Part shown: positions 30,537 through 56,530 of the stretch, one piece after another | Layout of the letters: each line of letters begins with the position of its first letter | Position numbering within the stretch: the first letter of the stretch is position 1 | Assembly: GCA_004431415.1 (NCBI GenBank) | Contig: QPMI01000408.1 | Coordinates: 62,001 to 126,000 of the forward strand | DNA: 64,000 nt | DNA from: Cyanophora paradoxa CCMP329 | Lineage: Eukaryota; Plantae; Glaucophyta | Direction: 5' to 3' | The notes under the pieces: model-generated | What the model saw: the letters and a program-made list of their open reading frames with translations, nothing else | Database searches by the model: none | What the model was told of the DNA's origin: nothing | Program-made: the position numbers and the translations under genes

Positions 30537-30785
30537 ATGACCGATATCAACCTTCCGATATACGTTGCCTTTGCAATCCAGCAACACATTGAATATCTTC
30601 TACTGAAACATTGCCGGAGGAGAATCCACCGACCCACCAACCACTATGTCCGTGTTTCCTTTGACAAACGAACCGATAAATGGAAAGCAGAAACCAAAAT
30701 CAATGGTTGCAAGAAGATAATCGGTTATTATGATTCATTCGAAGATGCTTATAAAGATCAAACATCGAAATCACGGTTTAATTGA
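30537..30785 (+). CDS. Small AP2-domain-like protein
   Basis: YVRVSFDKRTDKWKAETKING.KKIIGYYDSFEDAY; occupies the HNH-AP2 slot. Confidence 0.65.
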   Translation: MTDINLPIYVAFAIQQHIEYLLLKHCRRRIHRPTNHYVRVSFDKRTDKWKAETKINGCKKIIGYYDSFEDAYKDQTSKSRFN

Positions 30786-31653: not shown

Positions 31654-32723
31654 TTAGAAGTTACTTACTTTTAGAGTCGACATTTGATATGAATTAATTA
31701 CGAGAACGTTGTGGCGCAGGACGTGAAAATCGACTACAGCTGGTGCGGTGTTTGTACATCCGGTGACAGTGAGGGAGCAGTAGCTGCTGCTTGAGTTGAA
31801 GAAGTCTGTGTAGCCGAGGACAGCGTTGTGGAGGGAGTCTTTGCCAGATTTCGAAAGCACAATACCATAGACATTTCCGTCTTCAAAACCAAGGGCTGAA
31901 TTACCAGTTGTTGCTCCGCGATATTGAGTTGGGATATGATAGCAGCTCGAAACAAATCCAGAGATTGGCTTATTACTGATATCGAGAGTGCGATTATTGT
32001 GCATGATCTCAAACGAATCAATCTTCAAAGCGTTACCGTTACCGGCAAATGAATTATGATTGCGAGTGCCCAGGTGATTCGCATTACGCACTGTCATCAG
32101 GATCGCGTGCACAAGGCCGCTAACGTTAGCAAGGGATATTTCGACAGCGTTTCCTGCGTCGTCCGTCTTAAGCTGGCGTGAGCGCTTTGAAATGATTTCA
32201 GTAAAGGGAATTCTAATACCGCCAGACTCGTTCGCAGATTTTAGCATAGACTCTGCCTCTTCGCTAGGAATATTCACGAACTGACAAACCAGGGCACAAT
32301 CCGTTAGAGTCGCAATAGCATCAGCAACAGTTCCAATCACACCAGCCGAACGGAAGTCAATCTCGACGGTTGGCATATCCGCAAGTGCTAGCAGAGGGAA
32401 ATATGAATTGTCCCAAAGCTGTGATGGGATCTTCAGCACGTACTCTCGGCTAGCATCGAGAATCTCTAGAGCTGCGTCTTTTCCAAAGCCGTAGCTGCTA
32501 GCAAAAGCTTGGGCGGATGCGACGCTGTTATCAATCAGTGCGTTCACTGTAAGCCAATCACCGGGAATTACCATTTTGAAAGATCCATGAACAAAGCGTA
32601 CGTTTTCAATAAATGCACCAGCACCATTAGGAAGAACCGAAGCGGCAGCTCCACCAGCGACTGTTACCTTAAAATATAGGGAGACGCCATTTAGAAGTTG
32701 CTTGCGCGGAAGGTCGAAAGCAG
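31654..32723 (-). pseudogene. A2 major capsid gene, 3' part (disrupted by B)
   Basis: With 50697-50861, minus the 5-bp TSD, it reconstitutes exactly the 1230-bp MCP gene. Confidence 0.93.
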
Positions 32724-33128
32724 AGCTCAGCACTGCGCCGTGTCTCCAAAAAAATACCCGCGAAAAAAATCAAAAACAAATCAGAAAACAAACCATTCCC
32801 AGTAACCCAATCTTGAATATCAGTAAATCTCAGTAAGCCTCAGTAACCAAAATTGAATTAATCGAAGTTATATCATAATCTCGATTAATTATATCTTATC
32901 GAAGTTATATCTTTTTTATGCGCCGTGTCTCCAAAACAATTCCCAAGAAAAACAAACCATTCCCAGTAACCCTATTCGTATTCAACAGTAATCTCAGTAA
33001 GCCTCAGTAACAAAAATCGAATTAATCGAAGTTATATCTTAAATCTTATTTATCGAAGTTATATCATAATCTCGATTAATTATATTTAATCGAAGTTATA
33101 TCCTTTTTATCCGCCAAGTCTCCCATGA
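32724..33128 (+). repeat. B left TIR
   Basis: Inverted copy of 50292-50696; two ~185-bp internal units with GAAGTTATATC and CAGTAA iterations. Confidence 0.93.
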
Positions 33129-33129
33129 A

Positions 33130-34191
33130 TTAGCGTTTGGTTAAACCACTTCTCAAATTGTATCTTCTCCTTACAACATTACTTCGATTGGGTTTTATGC
33201 CTTCCTTTGCTACCAATCGATTCACTTTATTCGTTTTATTAACCTGCTGAATTCGTTTTTGTGATGGGATCTTAATGATATCATCTTTATTCACCTTTTG
33301 CAATTCTTGTTTCTTAAATCTCCTCTTCACTTCTTTTGTTTCCTCACCATCATTATCTTCAAGGACTTTGAAACGATTCCTATCAGCCTTTGCAACAGTG
33401 TAGACCTTTTGACTGAATTGCGCACCTTCTTTTTCAAATAATCCCTTTGGTTGCAAAACTCGAACTGTGTCTCCTGGTTTCACTTGATTAGTATCAGCCT
33501 CCTTTACACGATTGTTGTGAACAGTATCCCTCATGTAAATAAATAACTGTTTATCTTCATTTGTATACACTGCATTCGGTGAGTCATTTTTCAATGCCGA
33601 ATGGGGACTGCTATTATACAAGTCAATTACATCACTAAGTAGATCGATCCATTTCGTGGTTCCTTTTGCTGTCATCGTTTTCCTGAGATATTGTTTGAAA
33701 GTCCTAGTGAACCTATCAATTATCCCCAGTTTATCTCCTACTGTGATGTGGTCATCCTTTGCCACATCTGTGTAAAGCATTACACCATGTTCACTGCACC
33801 AATTTCGGTATACTGCCTGGGAAAACTCATTATCCCCAGAGAGAGCATTAACTTTGCCTGCATCTTGCTTGAACCTATTTAAAATGCTCGGGATCTCACT
33901 GCTGTTTTTAAAAGGATAAACAAATCCTTTGCGACTAAGTATGTCTACGAAACTGAGCATTTTGAAAATGCCATTGTTGGCAGTCTGAAACCCTCTGAAA
34001 TATGTTATATCGATTTGAAACGATCTAGGCTTTGCTACTATGCGAAGAAACGATTTGGGTTTCCTTGGTTTCTTGTAGATTTGCTGGAGTTCTGAGTTTT
34101 TGAATTTCTTTTTCAACTCTTTTTCATCAAAACTCACTTTTTCATTAATCAGTTTCTGCCTATACTTTTTGAATGATAATACACTATCCAT
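33130..34191 (-). CDS. rve integrase (B)
   Basis: FQIDI, SGDNE, GIIDRFTRTFK, YNSSPHSAL. Confidence 0.9.
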   Translation of the reverse strand: MDSVLSFKKYRQKLINEKVSFDEKELKKKFKNSELQQIYKKPRKPKSFLRIVAKPRSFQIDITYFRGFQTANNGIFKMLSFVDILSRKGFVYPFKNSSEIPSILNRFKQDAGKVNALSGDNEFSQAVYRNWCSEHGVMLYTDVAKDDHITVGDKLGIIDRFTRTFKQYLRKTMTAKGTTKWIDLLSDVIDLYNSSPHSALKNDSPNAVYTNEDKQLFIYMRDTVHNNRVKEADTNQVKPGDTVRVLQPKGLFEKEGAQFSQKVYTVAKADRNRFKVLEDNDGEETKEVKRRFKKQELQKVNKDDIIKIPSQKRIQQVNKTNKVNRLVAKEGIKPNRSNVVRRRYNLRSGLTKR

Positions 34192-37100
34192 TATTGGGCG
34201 GCACAGTTACACTTAATATGAGAGAGGAAACAATTTTTGGTAATGTGAGCCACAGCATTATTAATTCGATCTACCGAAATATCTTCAAAGTCCATGGCAT
34301 TGTAGCATCGCAGGCAATGCCCATACTGCTTCCCATATCGCTGCTTGATCCAATCCCATGTGATGTAATCATGCTCATCGAATTGTCTGTTTGCTGCTCG
34401 GTCCTGATCCTTGTAAGTCGATATTTTCTCGTTATTCTCTCTCTTCCACACCTTCCAGTGAGCCATTTCGAAATTATCATGGTAAATAACGACATCATCC
34501 AGCCTTGTGGTTCGTGTGAGAGCAACATAGAGCCACTTCTTTGACACAAATGGCGCCCCCGTTTCGAACACAACTACCCTGTTCCCTTTGCAGCGAATCG
34601 TATCACCTTGAACAACATGGCAGGTGTTTGCATAAGCCAGGGCGAAATGTTTGACTGCATCCCTGCTGAGAACAATCTCATCCTTCTTGTTGGCAATGTC
34701 AGCAATTATGAAACTGTCCTTTGAGAGCTTGACAATCTTGTAGACAAATCCATTATGAACTATTTTTCCACCCTTTGCAATACGAGTCTTTGCAACAACT
34801 TTGATGCCGCCAGCATAAATGGAAACATTATCCCCGTAGTTCATTTTGTGAAGGGCTAGGTTCACCTCTGCACCCTTGCGGTTTGTGTAAACAATGCCAA
34901 TATCAGTCTTTTCCAATTCGTCCACAACCTTGAACCCATACTTTGTGAGGACCTCACTTACACTCAAACCTTTCTCGAATAAATCAATTCGAATTTGCTC
35001 GACCTTCCTGCGATCTTCCTCAGTCTCATGTCGCTTGTTCACTTGGAGTAACAATTCGTTGGGGAACAGGCGATGGAGAATATCGAGGTAATACTCATCT
35101 TGGTCAACACTCATATCTTGGATGGGTGGGTTTTGGTACGGGTCCCCTGTGGCGATGTATACCTTATCTGGGAACTGCTCATTCATGATGTGGTCCAAGG
35201 CTGCCAGTTCCCCAATCTTAAACTGACAGATCTCATCAATAACAATGCAATCAAATTCCACCAAACCAGAGGCATTTCCTCCCACAATTTCATCCATGTT
35301 CGACTCATCGATTTTGAGATGAAGGGCATCATAGATTGTCTTCACATTTTTCAATCCTTGCTCTTTCATTTCTTTCACTCGCTTGTTGGTTGGAACAATA
35401 TAGAGGGGATTTTGGAAACACTTTCCTCCATATTCAACTGTCATGTAAGTCTTTCCAACTCCCGGAACTGCTCCGAGAAGAACCCATCGTTTTTGTGTAG
35501 CCAGCAAATCACAAATCGCGGTTGTGTCATACTCATCAACCACAGAGTGTTTGGTATAACTGTAGTTCTCGATTTTCACAAAGTCAGTCGCTCTCTCAAA
35601 CTTTCCGTAACGAATTCGTTTTGCCTCGAGGTCTTTCTTCTCACCTGAAAACTTTTTAGAAAAATTGGGGCAGCATTTCACACTGAATTTTCCAATATTC
35701 TCAAAGGCATTGCGATCGAATGACATTGGGGCAATGGGTTCGTAAGCGATCCCATAAACACAATCGGTGTTCAAAGCAAGTGGTCGGATTTGCTGTTTAG
35801 CGAGTTCGACACACTTCTCATACATACACATCCTCATAATTGACAAGAGGGTAGTGTACAATGGCATGAAGCCATCAATGAGCTGCTTTTCTGCTACCTG
35901 ATTGACATAGTAGATATGGGGTTCGGTCATCTCTTCCTCACACAGAACGAACTCTGTCTCCTCATAAGTGGCAAGAGTCTCACCAAAGAGGTAAATCTTA
36001 ACCTCCCCTCCATTCTGTTTCTGGAACTCGATCGCATCGTCTCTGTTGTGGAAAATGGTGGTTTTCACTCTGCTATTTCTTTGCTTTCCAGTTTGCCCAA
36101 TCGCACTCACTAAGATCTGCTTCTTATCAACAGGATCGAGGTCGCTATCTAAGATTCGAGCAACTGTGTTGCCTGCAAGGTTGGGAATGAGTTTGTAAGG
36201 TCGCAGAACCGCTTTGATGGAGATGTCATCCTTGAAATCCTCGAAATGCTTTTTGAGAACCAAACCAGGAACGACATTGTACTTGGAATCAATGATCATC
36301 CTCTTGTATCTGTTGTAGGTGTTTGCTTCGTACTCCTTTCCGTTCTTGTCTTTGGCTTTGAAAAAGTATTTGTCGTCCAGTTTCACGTAATAGAAGCTGT
36401 ATTCCTCGATTTGCTCTGCATATGTGATTGTCACACTCTTGAAGACATCGAACTTGCTGAGAACAGGAACGAATTTGATCATCAAGGCTACAATGTAAGG
36501 GTATGCTTTGCACATATCGAACTCGTAAATATCTGTGTTAAAGCGAATTTCATCAAAGGTTTCCTCATCCACATCAAAGAGACCACGAAGGGCAGTCTGC
36601 ACACCATTCTTGAAAGCATTTACGGTCTGTTCATTGTAAGTACTCTTGTTGGAAGTGTTGATTAGAGACCTATACATATCCAGATTCAGCTTCTCGAATT
36701 TATCTCTGTACTCAGCATTCTTGAAGCTAATCTCGAAGGCTGTTTCCACATCTGTATCGTTACCAGGTGGGGTCACGACAACATCCTTATCGTCAATAGT
36801 GAAACGAATATGGGTTGCCTTTCCGATTACCTGATAATTATGCACCACAATGAACTCTCTGAGAAGTTCATCCAGTGAACCACCATAGCAGATTCGAATG
36901 CTCGATTGGTTCTTTGGATTGTCAGACCTGACAATTCTCAGAATGTCGTCTGGATTTGTGGCAAACTTCTTGAACCTTCTTTGCTTTATAATTTTGTAAC
37001 GAGAACTGAGTGGAACATTGGTATCTTTTGGCTTGGAGCCATTGAAGGACTGTGTGAGAGCCTTAATATTGTGATTTAACAAATACATGTGACCATTCTC

Positions 37101-38276
37101 AATCTTCACATATGCAACAGAAGGGGTCAAGTGTGTGTTCCTGGTCTTGGGCAGGAAAGTCAGTTCAGGGACAGGGGTCCTGTCGTCCTTTCCAATTGTA
37201 ACCATGCCTAGGCGCAGTGGGTCAAGAACCTTCTCCGAAATGGACTTGAAAGAAATGCCCCAATCATCTCCTTCAACAGGGTCTCGCCCATTCACCATCT
37301 TAAAGAGTCCGTTGTAAGACCAATCGATGCGCTTGTATTTCCCTTTGGTCTTAGCCTTCTCAAATGCTCCTCCAAACCATTTGATGAGGACATCAAAGAC
37401 ACACTTCCCAACCTTGAATGAGTCTCCTTTCAAGAACATTTCCTTGAATGTGGTGGCTTGGGGGTTCCCTTCGTTTTTAATGAAATTCGAAATAATCATG
37501 GGAGCGTTTGTATTGTCTCTGAGGACTTGTTCATTTCTGGGGATGTATTCTTCATTATCTGTGGTGATGACTCTTTCGATTGTCATAATATCGGGGTAGG
37601 TATCTTGCTCGATTAGTTTTAGGTAGCGGAAATCTTGATTGTTTGAGTTAAACTCGATGACTGCTGCAATAAATTCAGCGATGACAGTCCCCTCGACGCA
37701 TGGGAACGTATTGAAGGTGGATTGAACCAGAGCAAGAGCGTTCAGAAAAGCTGCCTTGGTACACTGGATACCGAAGGGGCGATTGTTCCGAAGCCTCTTT
37801 GATTCAATGTAGGTCACGCCATTCTCAGTGACCCTATTTGCATTTGCAGGGGCTTGATCGCCCTCTTGCAACTCACGGAAGAGTCTCACATTCAGAGTGA
37901 CCATGTTTCCAGGTGAGTATTCAACAAACTCGCGAAGGTTAGCCATCATCTGCTGGAAAGGAGTCAAGCGCTTCCGCTCCTGTGCTTCGGCTGCTTTCTT
38001 GTTCTGCTTCTCAACATTCTTAGCGGCTCTCTCAGCCCTCTTCGCCTTCTTTTCTTGCTTGCGGACCACACGAGGATTGATGATACCATTGAGAGTATCG
38101 CGAATATCAATCAATGATTGCAAGCGGAGCCTGCGGTTAATTGTCCTTTCCAAAAAGTAGTTCACTTGCTCTTCATTGAGAATTCCATGGACACTACCCT
38201 GGGTGATGTAACCAATGATCTCTTCTCTTATCTTATTCGCTATTCTGTTTCCAGGGCGAGGCATTTCTTTGTTCAC
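34191..38276 (-). CDS. PolB-like domain fused to an SF1 helicase and a C-terminal HNH-like domain (1361 aa)
   Basis: FDMCKAYP / KQILVSAIG / NTDC (PolB motifs A/B/C-like); GAVPGVGKT, VIDE, GDPYQ, TCHVVQG, YVALTR (SF1); CxxC...SVDRINN..AH...N...CN. Confidence 0.85.
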   Translation of the reverse strand: MNKEMPRPGNRIANKIREEIIGYITQGSVHGILNEEQVNYFLERTINRRLRLQSLIDIRDTLNGIINPRVVRKQEKKAKRAERAAKNVEKQNKKAAEAQERKRLTPFQQMMANLREFVEYSPGNMVTLNVRLFRELQEGDQAPANANRVTENGVTYIESKRLRNNRPFGIQCTKAAFLNALALVQSTFNTFPCVEGTVIAEFIAAVIEFNSNNQDFRYLKLIEQDTYPDIMTIERVITTDNEEYIPRNEQVLRDNTNAPMIISNFIKNEGNPQATTFKEMFLKGDSFKVGKCVFDVLIKWFGGAFEKAKTKGKYKRIDWSYNGLFKMVNGRDPVEGDDWGISFKSISEKVLDPLRLGMVTIGKDDRTPVPELTFLPKTRNTHLTPSVAYVKIENGHMYLLNHNIKALTQSFNGSKPKDTNVPLSSRYKIIKQRRFKKFATNPDDILRIVRSDNPKNQSSIRICYGGSLDELLREFIVVHNYQVIGKATHIRFTIDDKDVVVTPPGNDTDVETAFEISFKNAEYRDKFEKLNLDMYRSLINTSNKSTYNEQTVNAFKNGVQTALRGLFDVDEETFDEIRFNTDIYEFDMCKAYPYIVALMIKFVPVLSKFDVFKSVTITYAEQIEEYSFYYVKLDDKYFFKAKDKNGKEYEANTYNRYKRMIIDSKYNVVPGLVLKKHFEDFKDDISIKAVLRPYKLIPNLAGNTVARILDSDLDPVDKKQILVSAIGQTGKQRNSRVKTTIFHNRDDAIEFQKQNGGEVKIYLFGETLATYEETEFVLCEEEMTEPHIYYVNQVAEKQLIDGFMPLYTTLLSIMRMCMYEKCVELAKQQIRPLALNTDCVYGIAYEPIAPMSFDRNAFENIGKFSVKCCPNFSKKFSGEKKDLEAKRIRYGKFERATDFVKIENYSYTKHSVVDEYDTTAICDLLATQKRWVLLGAVPGVGKTYMTVEYGGKCFQNPLYIVPTNKRVKEMKEQGLKNVKTIYDALHLKIDESNMDEIVGGNASGLVEFDCIVIDEICQFKIGELAALDHIMNEQFPDKVYIATGDPYQNPPIQDMSVDQDEYYLDILHRLFPNELLLQVNKRHETEEDRRKVEQIRIDLFEKGLSVSEVLTKYGFKVVDELEKTDIGIVYTNRKGAEVNLALHKMNYGDNVSIYAGGIKVVAKTRIAKGGKIVHNGFVYKIVKLSKDSFIIADIANKKDEIVLSRDAVKHFALAYANTCHVVQGDTIRCKGNRVVVFETGAPFVSKKWLYVALTRTTRLDDVVIYHDNFEMAHWKVWKRENNEKISTYKDQDRAANRQFDEHDYITWDWIKQRYGKQYGHCLRCYNAMDFEDISVDRINNAVAHITKNCFLSHIKCNCAAQ

Positions 38277-38505
38277 TCTATTAATATATACCTACAAAAG
38301 TTTTCTTTAAATACTTTTATACTCACGTCAAATTTTACCGGCAAAACCAAAAGTCTCCAACAAAATAAATTTAGTCGAGGGCATTCATAAAAATAACAAA
38401 GGGTTGGCTCGATCATCGAACTCTAAAAATAACAGAATGATTTTATTTGTGGTTCCAGCGCGGTTCCCGCGGGATTCTCAGAGCAGATCGCGCTGAGAAA
38501 AACGA

Positions 38506-38763
38506 TTAACAGACATATTTCGATTTGCGACCACGGTTAGAGTAGGGGACACCATAGAGATACTTAACAAAGCAGACTGCATTGGAAGCATAGAGACGCT
38601 GGGAACTCTCAACGATTCTCATGGCTCTGTAACACTCATCAGTATGGTATAAATCACGCATTTGCTTTGCGAATTTCGCATTATACTTTTTTAAATATTC
38701 CTGACCTTTTTCAGTTTTACGATAACGGTAAGTAGCACGCTTCTGAGCCTCACTGATTGGCAT
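38506..38763 (-). CDS. Small basic protein
   Basis: ATG-initiated 85-aa ORF (SEAQKRA.Y.Y start) in AT-rich context; loosely analogous to the family A basic proteins. Confidence 0.55.
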   Translation of the reverse strand: MPISEAQKRATYRYRKTEKGQEYLKKYNAKFAKQMRDLYHTDECYRAMRIVESSQRLYASNAVCFVKYLYGVPYSNRGRKSKYVC

Positions 38764-39116
38764 TTTGTCCTTTTCTACTCTCTTAATATATGTTAAGAAA
38801 TCTTTAAGTAGTTTTTCTGTCTGTATATAGCGAATAAAATCCTGTCAAATTTTGGTCCCACACTGATTGCAGAGCATCCAGTTCGAAAGAAGATGCTGGA
38901 AAAATGATAAAGCCACCGATACCCAAAAAGGTTCACTTGTCGGCTGCAAGTTTCTACCACTGAACCCGGTAGAACAGGTGATTAAAGTGATATCTGTGGA
39001 TAATTCACTTCGCTCTACAACGCCTCCATAAAAATGAAGAAGTTTTGAGCCTACGGGATAGGATTGGTTACGTAGCGCTACCTATGTTTGAGAAATTATA
39101 TTATTCACATTGATCC

Positions 39117-39866
39117 TTAACGGCGATATCCAGGTTTAATACCGAGCTTGGCAAACCCTGAGACCATTGGGGCAGCATTTGGAATCGAGTTGACTGGATC
39201 AGCCTGCGAAGTAGCAACCCGGAGGATCGATTTATTGAGGACCGGCAAATCCGTTTTGTTGGAGTCTTGATAATCGATGGTCTTTGCAATCAATTCGGCT
39301 GGTGATTCTTTTGCAACATGAACAGGTTCAGGGATGACTTCATGGGTTACTTCTGGTTTCTTCTCAACCTTTTCCTTTGTGATTGGCTGTTCCTTGATCT
39401 TGTTTTCGTTTTTGGTCTCTGCTGCAATGCCATCAACAAGACTTTTAGCATACTGGTATGTCACAGATTTCAGTCCACCAGTGGTTGAACGAATAAAGTA
39501 GCGGTTGCGATGGTCTTTCTCGGAATAGGTTGAGTAGAGTCGCTCACCACCATCAAGCAGTTTCAGCAGTGTTGATGATGAGGCAACCTTGTCCTTTGTC
39601 GATGATTTGAACTGTCCTTTCTTGATTCCTCGTTTGGCTCCAGGCATGCGGTTCAGTGGGACTTGGTCAACCAGGGCATTATCATCATTAGAATTTGAAG
39701 TAAGCGCAATTGTGTGAGCATTCATGGTCTGGTGAACATTTTTATCGAGATCACCAGTTCCATATGCAGCGGTTCCTTTTGATTTCTTAAACTGTTTCCG
39801 TTCTGGTTCCGCTTGCTCAACTGGTTTGGCTAAGAAATTCTTTGGCTGGGTCTTTCGAGTTGCCAT
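39117..39866 (-). CDS. Lys-rich candidate core protein (B)
   Basis: Shares RYFI....GLK, GIA.ETK.ENKI, SILR.A.S.ADPV and PM.SGF.KLG with 2975-3607. Confidence 0.75.
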   Translation of the reverse strand: MATRKTQPKNFLAKPVEQAEPERKQFKKSKGTAAYGTGDLDKNVHQTMNAHTIALTSNSNDDNALVDQVPLNRMPGAKRGIKKGQFKSSTKDKVASSSTLLKLLDGGERLYSTYSEKDHRNRYFIRSTTGGLKSVTYQYAKSLVDGIAAETKNENKIKEQPITKEKVEKKPEVTHEVIPEPVHVAKESPAELIAKTIDYQDSNKTDLPVLNKSILRVATSQADPVNSIPNAAPMVSGFAKLGIKPGYRR

Positions 39867-39902
39867 TTGTAATATCGAGACAAATTTATTCTACAGTATT
39901 TC

Positions 39903-40802
39903 CTATGACCGTGAGAACGGCAAGTAGAGTCCCTCCAACTCTTTAATGACATTCTTCAATGCTTTCTTTGTCAGATCTTTATCATCTTCCGTAATGAGTT
40001 CGAGAGTCATCGACCAATCAGTGGTAATATCCGTTTCGGCACCATTCCAGTATGTGAGACGAACTTTTAGCGTTTCAACTTCCACCAAACCGTTTTGCTC
40101 ATGCAGGATCATGGAATTATTCGATGAATCGTATTTAAGCAGACTGCCTACCGTTTGATCAATCTCGATTTTCGCAAGGGCTTTATCATCGCTTGTGTTC
40201 TTGCTTACATAGTTGCCTTTGAGTGGATCGACATGTAGAAGGATGTAAGAGTTGAACAGAAGATCGAGCGGTATAACACTGTCAATGTAGTAATTATAAG
40301 TATTAGTTCCGACTGTTACAGGTGAATCCAGCAGGGCAGAAGCGTAACCATTTTCTGAACTGTCAGGCCTGCGCTCTGGAAACCCAAGGAAGTTTGCTAA
40401 GATCCGACTTCCGAAGGTGAGGGTAAATGTTGCATCGCACATGAACCTTAGAAACATGGTAACAGGATCATATGTAACGTAGAAATGGCGAGTATAGGTA
40501 GTTCCTGCTGCACCATACACTTGTGAAGCTAGTTTGGCATTTAGAAGATTCACCAAACTATCCGAAGTATATGTCCCTTTCGAAATAGTGTTATTCTTAG
40601 TTTTAATTACATCTCCAGCATCATAGGTTCCTGTAATCAAACTTCCATTCTCGCTAAGATTGTAAATGTTATTGAACATCTCAAAGTTAGTCACTCTGCA
40701 GGCTCTCACATTTTGGATTGCATGGGGAATTTTGTAAGTAAAGTTCGTTGGGGTTCCATCATCTCGGTCCCTGGAATCAATATTAAGGTAATGACGCGTC
40801 AT
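39903..40802 (-). CDS. Putative minor capsid protein (B)
   Basis: IDSRDRD..TP.NF; aligns with 3678-4553. Confidence 0.75.
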   Translation of the reverse strand: MTRHYLNIDSRDRDDGTPTNFTYKIPHAIQNVRACRVTNFEMFNNIYNLSENGSLITGTYDAGDVIKTKNNTISKGTYTSDSLVNLLNAKLASQVYGAAGTTYTRHFYVTYDPVTMFLRFMCDATFTLTFGSRILANFLGFPERRPDSSENGYASALLDSPVTVGTNTYNYYIDSVIPLDLLFNSYILLHVDPLKGNYVSKNTSDDKALAKIEIDQTVGSLLKYDSSNNSMILHEQNGLVEVETLKVRLTYWNGAETDITTDWSMTLELITEDDKDLTKKALKNVIKELEGLYLPFSRS

Positions 40803-40854
40803 TCTGTTTAATAAAGCATTTTAAAAATTTCTTTTGGTATTTTAAACATAAGAG

Positions 40855-42081
40855 ATGGCACTCACTGGAACTACCCTTAAGGAACTCCTCGTAACTCCCG
40901 GTTCCGATCAAATTTATCTATCCCCTGGTCTCCAAATCGGAACCAACCCCAAGTACAAACCATTCCTCGAGCAAGTTCGTCCCCGAGGCAATACTTTTGG
41001 CTTTAAGAATACCGCTTACTTCGATCTACCTCGCAAACAACTCCTTGCTGGTGTTTCGCTCTATTTCAAGATTGCCACTGGTGGTGGTGTAGCCTGCACC
41101 CTCCCTAATGGTGGTTCTTCCTTTATTAATGAGGTTCGCTTTGTTCATGGTGGTTTCAAGTATATCATCCCTGGTGACTGGATTACTGTTAACGCTCTGA
41201 TTGATAATGATCATGCTACCATGAGCAGCATGTATGCTTCTCTTGGTTACTTCAAAGAACTTGATCGTGAAAGCACAGATGAGGCTATGGAATACATTGT
41301 TAAAATCCCCGCTGCTTTCTGGGATGATGCTTACTTCCCACTATGCACACTGGCGGATATGCCAACAATTGAGGTTGATTTCCGTGATGCTGGGATAGTC
41401 AAAGTTCCTGCTGGTGGATCTGTTACATTTGCAGATTGCTCCCTGATCTGTCAATTTGTAAACATCGCTTCGGCTGAGGCTGAGACACTTTTGAAAATGG
41501 CAAATGAACAAGGTGGCATTCGCATTCCGATCACAGAGGTCATCCACAAGAAGACACGAGCGCTCAAAACCGCTGATGCTGGTGAATCGGTTGAGGTGAC
41601 ACTCGCTAATGTTTCTGGTCTGGTTCATTCGATTCTCATGACAGTTCGAGAGGTGAACAAACTTAACACCTACACTCACTCTGATTTCTGTGGTCATGTT
41701 TCGGATGTTAAGATCGATCAGTTCCAGATCTTCCACAACAATCGCTCCCTGGATATCTCCAACAAACCCATTTCTGGTTTCCTCTCGGCTATCAATCACA
41801 TTCCTTCTCATTACAAGGGTGTTACTGTTGGCAATACTACTTATGGATTCGAGAATGGAAATATTTACGGAATCGTTCTTTCCAAATCTGGAAAAGATTC
41901 GCTTCGGAACTCGGTTATGGGTTACCAGGATTTCTTCAACAGCAGCTCGAGTTACATGGATCTCACTGTTTCGGGATGCACTGATGCCGCTCCTGTTCAG
42001 GTTGACATCTATGCCCTCCGACACAATGTTATGGTCCTCAATGGCTACAACATCTCTACCCTGAAAGTCTCGAACTTCTAA
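40855..42081 (+). CDS. Putative major capsid protein (B)
   Basis: Aligns end to end with the A MCP (GTTLKELL...STLKVSNF). Confidence 0.8.
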   Translation: MALTGTTLKELLVTPGSDQIYLSPGLQIGTNPKYKPFLEQVRPRGNTFGFKNTAYFDLPRKQLLAGVSLYFKIATGGGVACTLPNGGSSFINEVRFVHGGFKYIIPGDWITVNALIDNDHATMSSMYASLGYFKELDRESTDEAMEYIVKIPAAFWDDAYFPLCTLADMPTIEVDFRDAGIVKVPAGGSVTFADCSLICQFVNIASAEAETLLKMANEQGGIRIPITEVIHKKTRALKTADAGESVEVTLANVSGLVHSILMTVREVNKLNTYTHSDFCGHVSDVKIDQFQIFHNNRSLDISNKPISGFLSAINHIPSHYKGVTVGNTTYGFENGNIYGIVLSKSGKDSLRNSVMGYQDFFNSSSSYMDLTVSGCTDAAPVQVDIYALRHNVMVLNGYNISTLKVSNF

Positions 42082-42162: not shown

Positions 42163-42921
42163 ATGGATAACACAGTAAATCTAGATGATATACCGGAGTT
42201 TCATCCGAGCAAAACAGTTCGAATCCCAACGAGAATTTTGAATGTTGGTCGCTCCAATACAGGTAAGACAATGTTCACAAAATACTTACTTTACGAGCTT
42301 CGTGACAAGATCGATCAGATCGTTATATTTAGTTCAACAGCTTTTACTGGGCAATTTAATGACATCACCCATCCCGATAACATCTATGAGGAGTGGGATG
42401 ATAACATTGTTTTGAGATTGATCAGTATGCAAAAGAAACGAATCGAGAACAATGAGAAACGCAATAATCTAGTAATTATACTTGATGATATGATAGGTTC
42501 AAATTTGGATATGCATAATTCGGCTGTTTTATCTAAATTGGTCACGAGTGGAAGACATTATTCAATCTCGGTGATATTTAATGTTCAGCGTTTATGCTCA
42601 ATTTCTACTACCATTCGTCGCAATGTGGAATTCGTTGTATTTTTTAATATTCTTGGGAACGAAAAGGAATTCAACTGCGCTTTTGATGAGTATAATGGTG
42701 GTATGGATAAGAAGACCTACAAGGAATTGCATAGACTATGGGGTTACAATTACCAAACTGTCATAGCTAGCCTGCAAGGTTATGATATCAAGACCTATAC
42801 TGATCGAGCAGTACTCACTGATGATGATATAAAGGGCTTTAAGAAGTTTGTGAAGAGAAAAGCAATTAAAAGGAGTCAGATGGCTCGGATTCAGCGAGAA
42901 ATGACCACAATTAGTGTGTGA
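42163..42921 (+). CDS. A32-like packaging ATPase (B)
   Basis: GRSNTGKT, IILDD, GRHYSIS. Confidence 0.92.
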   Translation: MDNTVNLDDIPEFHPSKTVRIPTRILNVGRSNTGKTMFTKYLLYELRDKIDQIVIFSSTAFTGQFNDITHPDNIYEEWDDNIVLRLISMQKKRIENNEKRNNLVIILDDMIGSNLDMHNSAVLSKLVTSGRHYSISVIFNVQRLCSISTTIRRNVEFVVFFNILGNEKEFNCAFDEYNGGMDKKTYKELHRLWGYNYQTVIASLQGYDIKTYTDRAVLTDDDIKGFKKFVKRKAIKRSQMARIQREMTTISV

Positions 42922-43639: not shown

Positions 43640-43989
43640 GGACCTTCTCATTTACCCAGCTACTATAGCTAGGAAACTCCGACCCGTCACGGAGTCGCTA
43701 GCTACCTATTGTTAAGTCCAGCTAAACCGTTCGCAACTCAGCAATTTCGGCGATCCCGGATCTATTCCGCCCGAGGCAAATTCGATCTAAGGCCCGCCGA
43801 GTGTTGAGAACCCGGATTCTGAAGTTTCACAGGGGTGCTCTATCTTATATGCATGTATATAAAGGCGTAGGAACATGCGCGGAGTCTGTGCGCGCCCTGG
43901 GCGATGGGCCCCGGCCCGGCGACCCGGGCGATCTAGCGGGGGAGCTTAATTTGGTGGTCGCGTCCACCCTAATTTGGGGGCTAGCCGCC
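43640..43989 (+). repeat. 350-bp direct repeat, copy 1
   Basis: Near-identical to 46063-46411. Confidence 0.95.
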
Positions 43990-45289
43990 ACGGATTTCGG
44001 TATAATTCGGCGAAATTACGCTTAAAAGCGTCGAAATAAAGCTTAAAAACGTTAATTTTGGCCATAATAAGTAATTATTCGACTCGAAATTAAGAATTGA
44101 CCCAAGATTTTAACCGCGGATTGCCCCCCCCTGCGGGCAACAGCCTGCAGTTCCCGGCCGCCAGGGTTGGGCTTGTATGACTGTTGGCCACACCGAAATT
44201 TCCATCGGGCGCTTGATTGCCGCCCAGCAGGCATCTAATCTATCACGAATTCACTGTTTCTAATGTCGGGAAACGTCTTCCTGTGTGCCAGCAAGCGGAT
44301 CAAATTGCTGCTGCCTGCGTGCAGGTGCATCGCTTGCCGGCGCATCCGCGCGCCGCGCTGCTCTGCGTGGCGGCGCCGCGGCCGGCGGCATGCTGTCCAA
44401 TGCTCTCGAGCGTCGCAGCAGACCCGAGAGACTCCAAAATCCGCTCGCGCCAGCCCAAAACCGGGTCCCCAGCGACACTGGCCCCCTCGCACCCCGTCCA
44501 ATCAGCCAAAAAAGCCCGAGCGCAACACCCATAGAAAGACACACCTTGGGGCTCGTGCATCATCAAAGCAGGGCCACTGCGCGCACGCGCGCTGCTGCGC
44601 TTCGAATCCTGAAGTTAGAAGAGCATTGATATGGAAAGATGATATGAGAACGAGCTTATGTAATTTGAAGCCTAAATTGGCATGGGGCGTGCGAGAGCAG
44701 TTATACTAGATTGTGGCGCCGGCTGGCCAGCGCTCGGAAATGCAGGGGCCGGGGGCAGGGCCCGCAGGGGGGCGTGCGCATGCGCACCTGGGCGTTGAAG
44801 TTGGCGAAGGCCGGCTTGGCGGTGTCCGACTTATCGACCAGAACGAGCTCTGGGGCGCGCACGCTCCTTCATTTCTCCCTCTACCCCTTCGGAGGGTGGG
44901 GGTACACGGACCGACGACGAGGCCCGTGTTGAGCTTCCGCGAGAAGCCCCTGCGGAGGATTTTACCAGAAGGAGAGAACTCTACAGCGGGTACAACGTGC
45001 ACAAATTACCGTACCCCTCCGCGTCGTACCCCTCCAGCGGGGCGTCGTTGTGCTCGCACGCTGCGACCTCGTCCTCTCCTTGTCCTTGTGCTCGCACGCT
45101 GCGCCGCCGCCACCTGCGCGCTGCCCAGCTCAGCTCAGAAGCTCAGATCGGATCAGCTCAGATCAGATCTGACGGGTGGCGCGCCTGGGCGACGAGATCG
45201 CCGGCGAAGAGCAGCTGGCCCGCCCGCTCGCCCGCCCGCACGAGGTACGTCTGCAGCTCGCCGGCCCCTGCGCCCGCGTCAGCGCCGGC

Positions 45290-45480
45290 GGGGCGGGGCC
45301 GGGCGGGGCAGGCAGGGGCGGGGCGGGCGGGGCAGGCAGGGGCGGGCGGGGCGGGGCGGCGGGCGGGCCGGAGCGGGGCGGGCCGGAGCGGGGCCGGGCT
45401 GGACGGGGAGGGGCGGGGCGGGGGGCGAGGCGAGGGGGGCCGGGCAGGGCGGGGCGGGGCGGGGCGGGCGGGGCGGGGCG
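45290..45480 (+). repeat. GGGGC-type G-rich microsatellite
   Basis: Repeated G3-4C units; a poly-G run follows near 45755-45775. Confidence 0.85.
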
Positions 45481-46062
45481 GACCGAAGCCGTTGTGGGGG
45501 CGGAGGGCGACGCCGGCGCGCTCGAAGGCGATGCCGCGGACGTCCAGGGCGGCCTCGACGGCGAGCCGCGCCGCGTCCCGCAGTGCCGCCGAGCACGAAA
45601 TAATCGGGCGCCCCAGGGGCGTCGGCGCTGGGCGTCGGCGCCGCTCGGCGCCGGTATTCCGCCCGCGAGGCCTGCTGCGGGGTGCAGGATCAATCAGGAT
45701 TATTCGACTAGGTAACGGGGGCGGGGATGCGGCGGGGTTGGTGGGAAGGAAGAGGGGGGGGGGGGGGGGGGGGGAAGGCGAGGAGCGCGGCGGGGGGCTT
45801 GAGGATGGGCAAGGGGCGCGGCGAACCGGTGGGGCCCGCGGGGGGCATCAGAGCCGGGGCGCGGGGGGCCGCGGAGGGAGCAGGGCGCGGGGAGCGCACG
45901 CATCGGGGGACGGCGTGCGGGCGTGGAGCGCGCGCACGGGGACAAGGGGCGCGGGGGGACGGGCGCTGCGGAACTGGAACTGCAGCTGCAGTGGCCGCCG
46001 CGAGCCTGCGCGCAAGTCCTGCGGTTAGTCGTTGGATTTCAATGATTTATGTATGGAAAATA

Positions 46063-46411
46063 GGACCTTCTCATTTACCCAGCTACTATAGCTAGGAAAC
46101 TCCGACCCGTCACGGAGTCGCTAGCTACCTATTGTTAAGTCCAGCTAAACCGTTCGCAACTCAGCAATTTCGGCGATCCCGGATCTATTCCGCCCGAGGC
46201 AAATTCGATCTAAGGCCCGCCGAGTGTTGAGAACCCGGATTCTGAAGTTTCACAGGGGTGCTCTATCTTATATGCATGTATATAAAGGCGTAGGAACATG
46301 CGCGGAGTCTGTGCGCGCCCTGGGCGATGGGCCCCGGCCCGGCGACCCGGGCGATCTAGCGGGGAGCTTAATTTGGTGGTCGCGTCCACCCTAATTTGGG
46401 GGCTAGCCGCC
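46063..46411 (+). repeat. 350-bp direct repeat, copy 2
   Basis: Near-identical to 43640-43989. Confidence 0.95.
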
Positions 46412-47740
46412 CGCTAGTTCACGCTAGTGATACAATCAGATCAGCGTTCGCGCACCCTTGGGAAACGACAGAGGACGGACATGCTTCGGCGGCATCTGTG
46501 CAAAATTAAGCAGCAGAATAGGGTCACAAAGCATCCGAGCACACTGCGGCACGTGTGAGAGGAGCTATGGCCGATGCCGCGGGTCAATCAAGCGTGCTCC
46601 GGAATACTTGGCGGCGGGTGGTTCTCCGAAGCAGGAGAGCCACTACGAGCGTTCTATCTCTCTGGCTCACGGTAACTGGCTCGCGGCACCAGTCCTGGCT
46701 CGCAGGACATGAGGGCGGCGCATCGGCCCGCGGCGCATCGGTGCCTGCGCATTCGGGTGTTCAGGAGATGCGAGCTCGAGGGCGACGCCAGCCTTGATGG
46801 TGCAACGGACCGCCAACGCTTCCGCGGTACGTCGGTCGCTTCGGTCGCTGCTCCAGTCGGTCGCGGACTGCTGTTCATCTGCTCTGGTCGCTGTCGCTGG
46901 TGCTCCACGGCGGTGGCTTCGCGCTGTGCCCGCGAAGCGCTCGCGAACGGGGGTACACATTTGATGTGACGACAAGTACCCCCCCACTATTCAACGACTC
47001 TCAAAGCCGGCTCCCTCAGGGGCTGTTATGCTGCTGCTCAGCTCTATGTGACCGACCCTGCACCACAGCGATTGCTCGCGGTCGCTCGCGGTCGCTCGCA
47101 GCTCGCGCGTCGGCGTTCGCTCGCGGTCGCTCGCAGCTCGCAGCTGATCATGAGAGGCGGCGTATTGACGACTTCGGCTGCGGCTACAGCGTGCGTCAGC
47201 TCAAAGCTCTGCCGGCTTATCGAGCCATTGCGCGCCCCGCGGCCGCGCGAGACTATCTAGATCTCGTACGCTCGGAGCTCGTGGTGCGCGAGCCTCTCTA
47301 GATCTAGCTATAGATCTCGCGCGGTGCGCGGGCCTCTCTCGTACGCTCGCGGTGCGCCGTCGCACCGGGTGCGCCGTACGCGTCGCCTCGGGTGCGCGTT
47401 GCAAGCTCAGGTACCGGTTAGTCTCGACGGCCCGCGCCGCGGCGAGCACGCACCTAACTTTCGGTACAAGAACAGGTTAACACAGCTAACACGAACGGGC
47501 CGGGCGCTCCATTCTCTCACTCCCATCTCGGTTCATGATCATGATCATGCAAATGGCGTGTTCCCTCGCTCGCGGAGGCGCTCGCTGGGGCGTTCGGGCT
47601 CTTTATTTTGTATGTTGTACATATACATGGAAGGATAACTAAAGCGCCTTCGCCGCCGTGCACGTGGCGCCAAGCCGCCACGCCCGGGCACGTGCACGGC
47701 GGCGTCGCAAGGAGGACTGACCGGCGCTTCGTTGAGGTCT

Positions 47741-49040
47741 AGAAGTCAGCGACACAAGGCCGGGGCGGGCGGCGATCGTGATCGAGACGGGGCGCGCACC
47801 GCGCGAGGCCGAGGCGGGGTGGAGGAGCTTGGGCGGGGCGTTCGGCGCAAGGGGACCCGCAGAGAGCCCGCGACGCTGCGCAGAGAAGTCAGCGACACGA
47901 GGCCGGGGCGGGGCCCGGGGGGCGGGCTTCGAGACGGGGCGCGCACCGCGCGAGGCCGAGGCGGGGTGGAGGAGCTTGGGCGGGGCGTTCGGCGCAAGGG
48001 GACCCGCAGAGAGCCCGCGCGCGACGCTGCGCAGAGAACTCAGCGACACGAGGCCGGGGCGGGGCCCGGGGGCGGGATCCAAGGCGGGGCGCGCACTGCG
48101 CGAGGCCGAGGCGGGGCGGGAGGAGCTTGGGCGGGGCGTTCGGCGCAAGGGGACCCGCAGAGAGCCCGCGACGCTGCGCAGAGAAGTCAGCGACACAAGG
48201 CCGGGGCGGGGCCCGGGGGGCGGGCTTCGAGGCGGGGCGTGCACCGCGCGAGGCCGAGGCGGGGCGGGAGGAGCTTGCGCGGGGCGCTCCGCTCACGGGG
48301 ACCCGCAGAGAGCTCGCGACGCTGCGCAGAGAAGTCAGCGACACAAGGCCGGGGCGGGGCCCGGGGGCGGGCTTCGAGGCGGGGCGCGCACCGCGCGAGG
48401 CCGAGGCGGGGTGGAGGAGCTTGGGCGGGGCGTTCGGCGCAAGGGGACCCGCAGAGAGCCCGCGACGCTGCGCAGAGAAGTCAGCGACACGAGGCCGGGG
48501 CGGGGCCCGGGGGCGGGATCCAAGGCGGGGCGCGCACTGCGCGAGGCCGAGGCGGGGCGGGAGGAGCTTGGGCGGGGCGTTCGGCGCAAGGGGACCCGCA
48601 GAGAGCCCGCGACGCTGCGCAGAGAAGTCAGCGACACGAGGCCGGGGCGGGGCCCGGGGGGCGGGCTTCGAGGCGGGGCGTGCACCGCGCGAGGCCGAGG
48701 CGGGGTGGAGGAGCTTGGGCGGGGCGTTCGGCGCAAGGGGACCCGCAGAGAGCCCGCGCGCGACGCTGCGCAGAGAACTCAGCGACACGAGGCCGGGGCG
48801 GGGCCCGGGGGCGGGATCCAAGGCGGGGCGCGCACTGCGCGAGGCCGAGGCGGGGCGGGAGGAGCTTGGGCGGGGCGTTCGGCGCAAGGGGACCCGCAGA
48901 GAGCCCGCGACGCTGCGCAGAGAAGTCAGCGACACAAGGCCGGGGCGGGGCCCGGGGGGCGGGCTTCGAGGCGAGGCGGGGCCCGGGGGGCGGGCTTCGA
49001 GGCGGGCTTCGAGGCGGGGCCCGGGGGGCGGGCTTCGAGG
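47741..49040. repeat. GC-rich ~147-bp minisatellite, ~8.5 copies
   Basis: AGAA(G/C)TCAGCGACAC recurs at 47741, 47884, 48035, 48182, 48330, 48476, 48623, 48774 and 48921. Confidence 0.93.
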
Positions 49041-50291
49041 CGTGGCCTGCGTGCGGCAAAGGGGCGTACACGCACCGCGGTATACGCAGAAGCTCCGCCG
49101 CGCCCGGCGGCCGCAGCTTCAGGCTCGCCTTGCAAGCGCCAGGCGAGGACAGCCACGGGCTGTGCAAGGCCGTCAGCGAGGCGGTGCGCCGGGGCAGCGC
49201 AAGGAGGCAGACTCTGAGAGCGATGGGGCATGGAAGGGACGCGCACGCATTGCGGGACAGGTGCCGCCGTGCCGCTGTTTGAGGCTCGCGAGGGCCGAGC
49301 GCACGGGCCGGTGTGGCGGGCACCGGTTGTTCAGGGTCCAGCGGGGTCACCAGCACACGCATAGCTAGCTAAAAGCAACGTTCGATCCATTCTGCACTTC
49401 GCCAGACCTCGGACTGCGACGGCGAGCCAGACGAATGAGGTCAACATCGAGCGGATGAGGCGGCGGGCGGTGAGCAGGCAGTCTGCCAGCACGAGAGCAC
49501 CTGCAGCACGTGTACCAGCACGAAAGCACCGTTCTGGCCTGAAAGTGCCGTCGCATCGGGGCATCTGCATGCTCGTACGGCATCCGCCCGGGCTGTGGCT
49601 GAGGTTCGGCAACCTTCTACTGAGCTCTCTGAAAGGAACCGACGCTGAATCTTGCGGACCCGCGAACTCCGGGGAGTCGTTGGCGTAGTAGCCGTTGCTG
49701 GCCGACGACGGCGAGCTGACAGACCACATTCGGGCCGCAGGCGTGCACCGTGGCACTAGAAGAACTGCAGCCGCCTGTTGGCGGCCTGCTGGCGCGCGGC
49801 AGCTACGTTCAGGCCGCAGGAGGATTGGTACCCTCCCGTCGTTCGTGGGGGGGTAAAGTTACCTGTACCCTTCCTTCGTTCGCAGACGAAAACTCGTCTG
49901 TGCGATTGACTCGCGAACCGTTAGCCAAGCGCTAGCTCGACCCCCTGACCCGTTAGCTGGACTCCAATTGACAGCAATCATTCTTACATTTTTCCTGCCA
50001 GCGAAGGCCACAGAGGTTTCTAGCGACGCCAGTTTATGAGTGCGTCGGGTTTTTTAGCTGCGTCCGCGAGTTTTTTTGGCTAGCTACGGTACAGCCGTAG
50101 GTAAATGAGACGCCTCATTATATTGCAATATTGACGTATTTAGGATTAAAAAGCAATTAAAATTCTATTGTTTTTATTGTCGTTTCTATCGTTGTTTCTA
50201 GTGTAGAAAATACAGTAAAAAACCGTTCAAAAAATACAGTAAAAAATGAGAGGTTTTTCGAACGAGGTTTAAACTGAAATCACTTTGTAAA

Positions 50292-50696
50292 TCATGGGAG
50301 ACACGGCGGATAAAAAGGATATAACTTCGATTAAATATAATTAATCGAGATTATGATATAACTTCGATAAATAAGATTTAAGATATAACTTCGATTAATT
50401 CGATTTTTGTTACTGAGGCTTACTGAGATTACTGTTGAATACGAATAGGGTTACTGGGAATGGTTTGTTTTTCTTGGGAATTGTTTTGGAGACACGGCGC
50501 ATAAAAAAGATATAACTTCGATAAGATATAATTAATCGAGATTATGATATAACTTCGATTAATTCAATTTTGGTTACTGAGGCTTACTGAGATTTACTGA
50601 TATTCAAGATTGGGTTACTGGGAATGGTTTGTTTTCTGATTTGTTTTTGATTTTTTTCGCGGGTATTTTTTTGGAGACACGGCGCAGTGCTGAGCT
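50292..50696 (-). repeat. B right TIR
   Basis: Inverted copy of 32724-33128. Confidence 0.93.
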
Positions 50697-56529: not shown

Positions 56530-56530
56530 A

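Follow-up and report, generated by a model that had tools for sequence, protein, structure and literature searches.

The 64,000-nt stretch of the Cyanophora paradoxa genome analysed here (the window) contains a long reverse-strand ORF that an earlier note read as a fusion of a PolB-like polymerase, an SF1 helicase and an HNH-like domain, and the locus raises the question of whether such a protein, whose relatives have been labelled inactivated polymerases, may still copy DNA. We propose, with a probability of roughly 0.8, that the ORF encodes the pPolB-S1H ('Tlr1-like helicase') replicase of an integrated polinton-like element. From N- to C-terminus the protein comprises a TP-like domain, a vOTU protease, a putative exonuclease remnant, a phi29-type palm, a Pif1/Dda-type SF1B helicase and an HNH-like zinc finger (Table 1); this reading is carried by the order and folds of the domains, by the catalytic residues, by the signs of purifying selection and by the ends of the element. 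The fifth codon, the first ATG of the ORF, is the likelier start, being better suited to a eukaryote than the GTG.

The replicase gene sits in an 18-kb, integrase-bearing polinton-like element (element B), which interrupts the capsid gene of its sister, element A, and the 5-nt target sequence is present as a single copy in the intact sister gene. The integrase ATG and the replicase stop overlap by one base (TAATG), and the integrases of the two elements are 29% identical (E 8e-38). Element A encodes a related capsid protein (63% identity) but a full-length pPolB, which carries an EndoVII finger in a Pfam search; element B falls outside the strict definition of a polinton (a full pPolB with exonuclease), and the DNA_pol_B_2 matches lie in element A. 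We take the 408-aa ORF of element B to encode the major capsid protein and, from its N-terminal motif, the 299-aa ORF to encode the minor one; neither candidate had a Pfam or PHROG match, and no capsid protease was recognised in the element. The GC-rich stretch, which gave no Rfam match and no Pfam match in the four ORFs tried, is likely a later insertion.

Table 1. Features of element B and of its replicase, in window coordinates.
Feature	Position	Strand	Remarks
Target duplication AGCAG, left copy	32719-32723		5 nt
Left terminal inverted repeat	32724..33132	+	409 nt, begins AG
Retroviral-type (rve) integrase	33130..34191	-	353 aa; weak Pfam rve_3 match, E 0.004
pPolB-S1H replicase ORF (probable)	34191..38276	-	1361 codons from GTG; 1357 aa from ATG at 38264
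Long helix and HNH-like (beta-beta-alpha) zinc finger	34191..34469	-	residues ~1270-1361
R1337 (general-base position)	34266-34268	-	
SF1B helicase (Pif1/Dda/RecD2 type)	34473..35540	-	residues ~913-1268, complete motif set
Protein-primed PolB palm/fingers	35667..36656	-	residues ~541-870
D838 (second motif C Asp)	35763-35765	-	LNTDCVY 835-841, with N836
K719 (motif B-like)			within KQILVSAIG 719-727
D587 (motif A)	36516-36518	-	within FDMCKAYP 586-593
Alpha/beta piece at the exonuclease domain's place (putative remnant)	36657..36989	-	residues ~430-540; no Exo motifs
vOTU cysteine protease	37062..37502	-	residues ~259-405; catalytic C292, H396
TP-like alpha/beta domain	37557..37910	-	residues ~123-240; DSSP of model
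85-aa basic ORF	38506..38763	-	no function found in library searches
249-aa ORF	39117..39866	-	common to element A, 38% over 192 aa
Likely minor capsid protein	39903..40802	-	299 aa; position, size; 38% identical to element A counterpart
Likely major capsid protein	40855..42081	+	408 aa; position, size; 63% identical to element A counterpart
A32-type packaging ATPase	42163..42921	+	252 aa; Pfam Pox_A32, E 1.5e-15
GC-rich (65-69%) stretch	43640..50050		350-nt direct repeat, ~147-nt tandem array
Right terminal inverted repeat	50288..50696	+	99% complementary to left
Target duplication AGCAG, right copy	50697-50701		5 nt

In each of the three DNA-type runs compared, contigs span the replicase ORF piecewise at about 98% identity, and the indels listed within it all preserve the frame. 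An assembly artefact was ruled out, since independent contigs span the ORF, as was a host-virus chimera, its GC content (43.5%) being like that of the rest of the element. Over residues 487-945, copies in other runs differ by 16 synonymous and 5 non-synonymous changes (pN/pS 0.08, p 6e-8; the 21 differences are identical in both runs and count as one comparison). None of the five falls at a catalytic residue, and this comparison of sequences indicates that the palm is under purifying selection. Of the presumed-RNA runs, two left the palm uncovered and one yielded short fragments, which is uninformative on expression.

The closest relatives are distant, with 34% identity in the best palm match and 23-25% over the full length. 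The palm as query retrieved 80 homologs at E<=0.001, the helicase-HNH region alone retrieved four, and a profile search from five sequences added one true homolog (an unrelated helicase, P0086, also matched and was left out). A word-based protein search with the palm and a search of a phage collection gave no match, PDB sequence searches with the single replicase protein or the finger alone returned noise only, and no loci related to the replicase or capsid protein were found among the viral contigs searched.

The motifs picked out in the earlier note (FDMCKAYP, KQILVSAIG, LNTDCVY, the SF1 set and the C-terminal CxxC..VDRINN) all lie where it placed them, and structure prediction, the check it proposed, yields the palm fold of a protein-primed PolB. 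The two replicase models have pLDDT 81.8 and 92.2. For the palm region, all nine PDB matches found by Foldseek at E<=0.001 were phi29 polymerase (E 1.7e-7), which also scored Z 14.5 in VIA-align (rmsd 5.2, 351 aligned residues), the next polymerase reaching Z 8.4. Alignments to RNA-primed PolBs, by comparison, span 140-190 residues, and the longer phi29 alignment suggests that TPR1 and TPR2 subdomains may be present. The structure tools report aligned ranges, so the placement of D587 and D838 on phi29 is at range level rather than a residue-by-residue superposition. In BFVD, 34 matches at E<=0.001 are mostly named protein-primed polymerases, with mavirus at rank 3; the rank 1 entry, H6WBE3 (999 aa, E 4.5e-17), is nameless in the output and is presumably a transpoviron protein. 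Atlas features of the palm include DNA_pol_B_2 (0.90).

Both aspartates singled out in the earlier note proved to be conserved. In counts that favour palm motifs, 80 of the 85 homologs having been retrieved with the palm as query, D587 is found in 78 (7 gaps), D838 in 81 (1 E, 3 gaps), K719 in 83 (2 gaps) and Y592 in 75; the four homologs retrieved via the helicase-HNH region alone all keep both aspartates. The first motif C Asp occurs in none of 81 aligned homologs, and we found neither a conserved KxY motif nor a thumb after G862. As judged from the alignment, retention of D587 and D838 is the norm across the pPolB-S1H family, and the distinction that had been drawn between this protein and the 'inactivated' Tlr1 and transpoviron fusions is not supported. 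A separate 'reactivated' lineage was ruled out, all homologs having the same Asp pattern.

The label 'inactivated' was indeed applied to the fusion polymerases in 2016, on the strength of the first motif C Asp substitution (PMC5499653; this and the following papers are cited for the parts available to us). The same authors withdrew this reading of the substitution in 2024 and predict activity (Krupovic et al. 2024, PMC11161782, section 9), while a 2025 preprint, in the part available, still terms the pPolB-S1H polymerase domain inactive. Were the palm dead, its task would be to bind DNA and act as a scaffold on which the helicase works, and a host or helper-virus polymerase would copy the element. 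This published reading (PMC5499653) accords with the replacement of the first motif C Asp in 81/81 aligned homologs and with the lack of KxY motif, thumb and exonuclease motifs. We nonetheless consider it very unlikely, given that D587, K719, Y592 and D838 are near-invariant despite about 28% identity, that dead PolB folds among the search matches score far lower (a herpes UL8-like chain at Z 5.2; the poxvirus F12 family), that active polymerases carry the same motif C substitution (PMC11161782) and that the element has no second replicase. The palm is probably a working DNA polymerase, as the earlier note had suspected. In the openly searchable literature we found no report of biochemical activity for the pPolB-S1H family, and only the 2016 paper surfaced.

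Upstream of the palm lie a vOTU protease and a TP-like domain, both of which had escaped the earlier note. Together, these two domains point to protein priming. OTU folds match model residues 150-296, the best of them at Z 6.5 (rmsd 3.8, 111 aligned), and many OTU domains match this one region (Z 4.3-6.5, single values being middling); the catalytic Cys is kept in 70/85 homologs (15 gaps) and the His in 73/85 (11 gaps, 1 K). Within the TP-like domain, which has a mean identity of 13% among homologs, DSSP of the model places T226/Y227-P228 in the loop preceding the last strand, and T226/Y227 is a candidate priming residue, though not a single conserved column among homologs. No fold match was listed for this region in a structure comparison of the larger model containing it; its position and loop are described likewise in section 6 of PMC11161782. 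Exonuclease motifs are absent, as had been noted, yet an alpha/beta piece of about 110 residues occupies the place of that domain and may be its remnant. The phi29 alignment pairs residue 434 with phi29 residue 6, and just two columns of the piece are acidic in at least half of the homologs, both mixed E/D.

The helicase carries its SF1 motifs between residues 935 and 1255 (Walker A K942, DE 1014-1015, GDPYQ, KR 1081-1082, QG 1223-1224 and ALTR 1252-1255) and matches Pfam AAA_19 (E 3.4e-8). Its model resembles the solved structures of Pif1 (Z 26.0) and Dda (Z 25.9); RecD2 also matched.

The C-terminal domain has an HNH-like fold and the motif that the earlier note listed, but a nuclease role is weakened by the residue at the general-base position. 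DSSP of the model gives strands 1333-1337 and 1349-1353 and helix 1354-1359, a beta-beta-alpha core with a zinc knuckle, and the motif runs through CLRC 1321-1324, VDRINN 1335-1340, H1344, N1348 and HxxCN 1353-1357. R1337 ends the first strand, where the catalytic His of the superfamily sits (PMC5714182). Arg occupies this position in the query and 62/63 alignment rows and His in 0/63, and in the alternative register (N1340) His is not among the four commonest residues. The His of a regular HNH protein encoded in the window aligns with R1337 in a profile comparison that is not significant (probability 0.7%; E 0.02) and served for register alone. Also conserved are H1344 (61/63), N1348 (62/63), N1357 (55/63), D/N/Q at 1336 (61/63) and D1292 of the linker helix (61/63); the second zinc pair is HxxC in the query, 60/63 rows having Cys at 1353. 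Mean identity is 33% in the finger (inflated by zinc ligands), 30% in the helicase and 28% in the palm. A Pfam HNH match was obtained for only 1/37, and Atlas matches to the finger were all under 0.9. A C-terminal HNH has already been reported (PMC5499653; PMC11161782), and the supplement of PMC5499653 assigns a B. natans PLV domain with the motif DRIDN..H...N....C..CN to HNH_4 at 99.6%. We found no His-to-Arg HNH subtype in the openly searchable literature, and the available parts of the pPolB-S1H literature do not remark on the family-wide change.

The same two papers suggest, in the parts cited here, that the finger is selfish, a homing endonuclease or the remnant of an intein tacked onto the gene, and takes no part in replication. 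It can indeed be lost or swapped: it is absent from 8/66 near-complete homologs, which occupy three separate places of the tree and five of which stop 12-17 residues past helicase motif VI, and homolog P0071 has a GIY-YIG nuclease at its place (E 8e-8). The correlation of its similarity pattern with that of the palm is also lower (r 0.32) than for helicase or OTU segments of the same length (0.41-0.50). However, none of 500 permutations reached this r, 58/66 near-complete homologs have the finger, the conserved linker helix joins it to the helicase, and the His-to-Arg change is fixed with no signs of decay. A selfish remnant thus seems quite improbable. Since the change is family-wide, and conservation nevertheless equals that of the helicase, the finger probably serves as a DNA-binding module, or else as a nuclease that has been rewired, rather than being a passing homing endonuclease.

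An active rewired nuclease, with polymerase and helicase as proposed above, is the less favoured form of this idea and in our view unlikely. Loop His1344 would replace the general base and D1336 and N1357 would hold the metal, and genome ends would be nicked or trimmed, for example in removing the terminal protein before integration or in resolving replication forms. The conservation of H1344, N1348, R1337, N1357 and position 1336 speaks for such a site, as do the finger's overall identity, the precedent of PacI, in which a loop Tyr stands in for the catalytic His (PMC5714182), the GIY-YIG nuclease in P0071 and Tlr1, and the EndoVII finger of the neighbouring full pPolB; terminal protein removal is also termed unexplained in PMC11161782. 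Against it, the canonical His is missing from every row, His-less groups without a substitute residue are described as inactive binders (PMC5714182), and some near-complete homologs do without the domain. In its strongest form, which we regard as a long shot, the finger would be an HNH that was domesticated and acquired a new active site, and the replicase would combine five activities: priming, self-cleavage, polymerisation, unwinding and, last, removal of its own terminal protein, letting the adjacent integrase insert the genome. If true, this would explain how DNA ends are cleared in protein-primed integrating viruses.

We favour protein-primed copying of a linear genome, with the helicase in the thumb's stead and a finger that binds without cutting, and hold this proposal as a whole to be likely. 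At the terminal repeat, the first nucleotide would be attached to a Ser, Thr or Tyr in the TP-like domain, for which T226/Y227 is the candidate, and the vOTU protease (C292/H396) would sever the TP part from the polyprotein. The palm, in which D587 and D838 would coordinate two metals, would extend the product without proofreading, while the SF1B helicase travelled 5'-3' along the displaced strand and kept pace with the polymerase moving 3'-5' on the template; the outcome would be strand displacement and processivity, the fused helicase likely substituting for the absent thumb. The His-less zinc finger would grip duplex DNA or the genome end, probably with no cutting, and the adjoining rve integrase would insert the product, giving the 5-nt duplication. 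Counter to a non-cutting finger run the conserved H1344, N1348 and N1357 and the GIY-YIG nuclease at the same place in one homolog.

The observation that opened this analysis is thus real but not novel, as the literature already covers the architecture, the kept aspartates, the prediction of activity, the C-terminal HNH and the switching of replication modules. Its value is as a clean test case, with an intact gene, purifying selection and good models; the sister element alongside, whose capsid genes are related and whose pPolB is full-length, makes a side-by-side comparison possible. Both the predicted polymerising activity of pPolB-S1H proteins and the function of a finger that lacks the His are approachable here.

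Among known systems, compared by description, the pPolB-S1H proteins of PLVs such as Bigelowiella natans Bnat26 (PMC5499653; PMC11161782, in the parts available) share the 1000-1400 aa size class and the order of TP-like domain (a putative one in the replicase), vOTU with Cys/His, palm, SF1B helicase and C-terminal HNH, and likewise lack exonuclease motifs, motif 4 and the first motif C Asp. Bnat26 and the replicase have the finger motif DRI(D/N)N..H...N....C..CN in common, although the replicase has H1353 where a zinc Cys stands, and element B has an rve integrase that most PLVs lack. Tlr1 of Tetrahymena thermophila resembles element B in having an rve integrase, an A32 ATPase, a pPolB-S1H protein, terminal inverted repeats and capsid proteins (likely ones in element B), with a capsid protease recognised in neither; its C-terminus is GIY-YIG rather than HNH-like, and the host here is GC-rich. 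Transpoviron helicases and the mavirus pPolB combine, like the replicase, a palm lacking exonuclease motifs with a vOTU, whereas transpovirons, unlike element B, lack genes for capsid proteins and integrase, and mavirus has a separate SF3 helicase in place of a fused SF1B. In an Oxyrrhis marina PLV, SF1 helicase and pPolB are likewise fused in one protein, but in reverse order, with a full exonuclease and of independent origin (PMC12721341, in the part available). The DNA polymerase of Bacillus phage phi29, the closest solved fold to the palm region, differs from the replicase in that its exonuclease is active, a thumb is present, the TP is a separate protein, and both helicase and protease are lacking.

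The replicase of the polinton-like element B is a polymerase-helicase fusion with TP-like, vOTU, probable exonuclease-remnant, palm, helicase and HNH-like zinc-finger (finger) domains. With a probability of roughly 0.8, we infer that it is a protein-primed polymerase without proofreading. In this scheme, the vOTU would set the TP free, the tethered helicase would travel 5'-3' on the displaced strand and substitute for the thumb, the finger would bind DNA, and the rve integrase would insert the replication product.

The replicase is encoded in a single uninterrupted frame of 1361 codons; its first ATG is codon 5, and residues are counted from the GTG. Three DNA-type public runs of one organism supply contigs that cover the frame piecewise at ~98% likeness, and the indels listed within it all preserve the frame, so an assembly artefact is ruled out as its source. 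Over residues 487-945, the X4 and X9 run copies share the same 21 listed differences from the window (23 in all) and thus count as one comparison: 16 are synonymous and 5 non-synonymous (pN/pS 0.08; binomial p 6e-8), and D587, K719 and D838 are untouched.

A predicted model of residues 110-925 (pLDDT 81.8, pTM 0.81) bears out the PolB-like palm that an earlier note had read from sequence motifs, all of which are found where it placed them. All nine Foldseek matches in the PDB at E<=0.001 are phi29 polymerase, which also aligns best in VIA-align (Z 14.5, rmsd 5.2, 351 aligned, from residue 434, phi29 6-511; RNA-primed PolBs reach at most Z 8.4). BFVD matches are mostly protein-primed polymerases, with mavirus third. 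Because the alignment begins in the phi29 N-terminal domain, residues ~430-540 of the model are likely an exonuclease remnant; no conserved catalytic acid pattern was found there among homologs. The alignment ends ahead of what we take to be the phi29 thumb boundary, and no KxY motif was found after G862. Many OTU domains align to residues ~259-405 (best Z 6.5). Since the model of residues 901-1361 (pLDDT 92.2) best matches Pif1 (Z 26.0), Dda (Z 25.9) and RecD2 (Z 24.6), the modelled helicase is assigned to SF1B, with a predicted 5'-3' polarity taken from the available text of PMC5499653.

Residues 428-917, used as the query of a full HMMER scan, retrieved 80 proteins at E<=0.001, mostly of 1000-1500 aa, and word searches added 5, giving 85 homologs; P0086 was excluded as unrelated. 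The two aspartates said to be retained are conserved (D587 of motif A in 78, 7 gaps; D838, the second of motif C, in 81, 1 Glu and 3 gaps), as is K719 of motif B (83, 2 gaps), in a mainly palm-retrieved set that favours these counts; all 4 homologs retrieved via the helicase-HNH region carry both Asp. The first motif C position is never Asp (K 42, N 23, R 8, H 6, A 1, I 1). Elsewhere, C292 (70, 15 gaps) and H396 (73, 11 gaps, 1 Lys) of the vOTU and the Walker A Lys (76, 9 gaps) and Walker B Glu (73, 12 gaps) are kept. Excerpts of PMC5499653 label the polymerase inactivated on account of motif 4 loss and motif C changes; PMC11161782, in its available part, withdraws this on the grounds that active polymerases can lack the first motif C Asp too. 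Beside these counts, a catalytically dead palm seems highly improbable.

The 901-1361 model gives the finger a beta-beta-alpha core (strands 1333-1337 and 1349-1353, helix 1354-1359), in keeping with the HNH-like domain proposed earlier; the catalytic His of the proposed nuclease is missing. In the HNH superfamily this His sits at the first-strand end (PMC5714182, available text), which R1337 occupies here (Arg in 62 of 63 rows, His in none). The zinc ligands persist, as do H1344 (61), N1348 (62) and N1357 (55). A rewired nuclease, which would be compatible with the rest of the preferred reading, is unlikely. Among 66 near-complete homologs, 58 have the finger, 5 stop directly after the helicase (at three places in a FastTree tree), 2 are possibly truncated and 1 has GIY-YIG instead. 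Mean identity across 59 proteins is 33% for the finger, 30% helicase, 28% palm, 25% vOTU, 19% remnant and 13% TP-like. That the HNH tail is parasitic we consider very unlikely, alongside a finger similarity pattern that tracks the palm (r 0.32, 0/500 permutations; helicase pieces higher, 0.41-0.50). The missing His, presence in 58/66, scattered losses, identity and correlation thus indicate an old finger domain, for the most part co-inherited, which some lines can do without and which is no canonical nuclease.

Element A, a sister element with full-length pPolB, is present in three copies, and the major capsid gene of one of them carries element B as an insertion; the bases duplicated at the insertion occur once in an intact A copy. 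Element B encodes an rve integrase, the replicase, 85-aa and 249-aa ORFs, likely minor and major capsid proteins and an A32 ATPase. Each terminal repeat (32770-33123, 50297-50650) holds two sub-repeats of ~160-190 nt, 75% alike. The GC-rich stretch inside B, which gave no Rfam or Pfam match, is probably a non-autonomous element of the host. The stop codon of the replicase and the start codon of the integrase overlap by one base (TAATG, 34189-34193), and in element A the integrase ATG lies within ~10 bases after the pPolB stop; translation of the two genes is possibly coupled. AAAATTTGAC and TAYTTAAAGA occur solely upstream of the replicase and 85-aa ORF, with 2 matches each, a number reached in 3/100 and 0/100 shuffles, respectively, for patterns chosen after inspection. 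AAAATTTGAC resembles what we take to be the mimivirus early promoter, a hint that a helper virus may drive element B expression.

Coordinates of features in the window
Feature	Position	Strand	Remarks
Element A copies	2548-13256; 24151-52879; 52880-63912		pPolB, rve integrase, ATPase, likely capsid genes, inverted repeats
HNH-AP2 gene, stand-alone	6702-7235, 57404-57940	-	two A copies; canonical His present
LTR-type retrotransposon ORFs	13710-24313	-	RT, RNase H, integrase; between A copies
Element B	32724-50696		409-nt inverted repeats (99%); 5-nt duplication AGCAG
Replicase	34191-38276	-	
Upstream motif matches (AAAATTTGAC, TAYTTAAAGA)	38327-38336, 38304-38313, 38844-38853, 38801-38810	-	
GC-rich non-coding stretch of element B	43640-50050		350-nt direct repeat (43640, 46063); ~147-nt tandem array (47719-49050)

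Along the window, blocks of 65-70% GC take turns with blocks of 41-44% GC. The retrotransposon lies in a GC-rich block (13.3-24.1 kb), and a 1171-aa GC-rich ORF, likewise between A copies, had no Pfam match. The host would be a GC-rich eukaryote, probably a protist. A 6-nt duplication (CCCCGA) borders the first A copy; the third follows the second without a gap, and this pair is flanked by GCCGG. Element A has pPolB and EndoVII matches. Its pPolB is broken into at least two frames in all three copies (8575-12691, 25095-29135, 59256-63382), whereas the B replicase is whole. The A copy lacking the HNH-AP2 gene has only an 82-aa AP2-like piece (30537-30785).

In both A and B the genes fall into two blocks, one with replicase and integrase, the other with the shared ORF, the capsid genes and the ATPase; the order of the blocks is swapped and their relative orientation preserved (2548-13256 vs 32724-50696). 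Identity is 63% for the capsid, 45% ATPase, 38% minor capsid, 38% 249-aa ORF and 29% integrase. The replicases gave no BLAST match to each other at E 0.01; a profile built from the B-family palm does pick up the polymerase of element A, and motifs B and C line up (E 5e-6 in a set of 4 proteins). Switching of modules in this manner is reported as common in the available part of bioRxiv 10.64898/2026.06.19.733378. The second A copy is 100% identical to the others in capsid and ATPase DNA; its pPolB protein is only 41-57% identical and its integrase 88%. The replicase appears to have been exchanged between near-identical capsid modules of A copies.

The replicase belongs to a family already known, for which our literature search found no biochemistry. 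The fusion and its HNH tail are described in PMC5499653, where the Bnat26 sequence, in the portion available, carries the same Arg motif as the finger; PMC11161782, likewise in part, adds the TP and vOTU and names the family pPolB-S1H. The fusion in the accessible text of PMC12721341 is different from the element B replicase.
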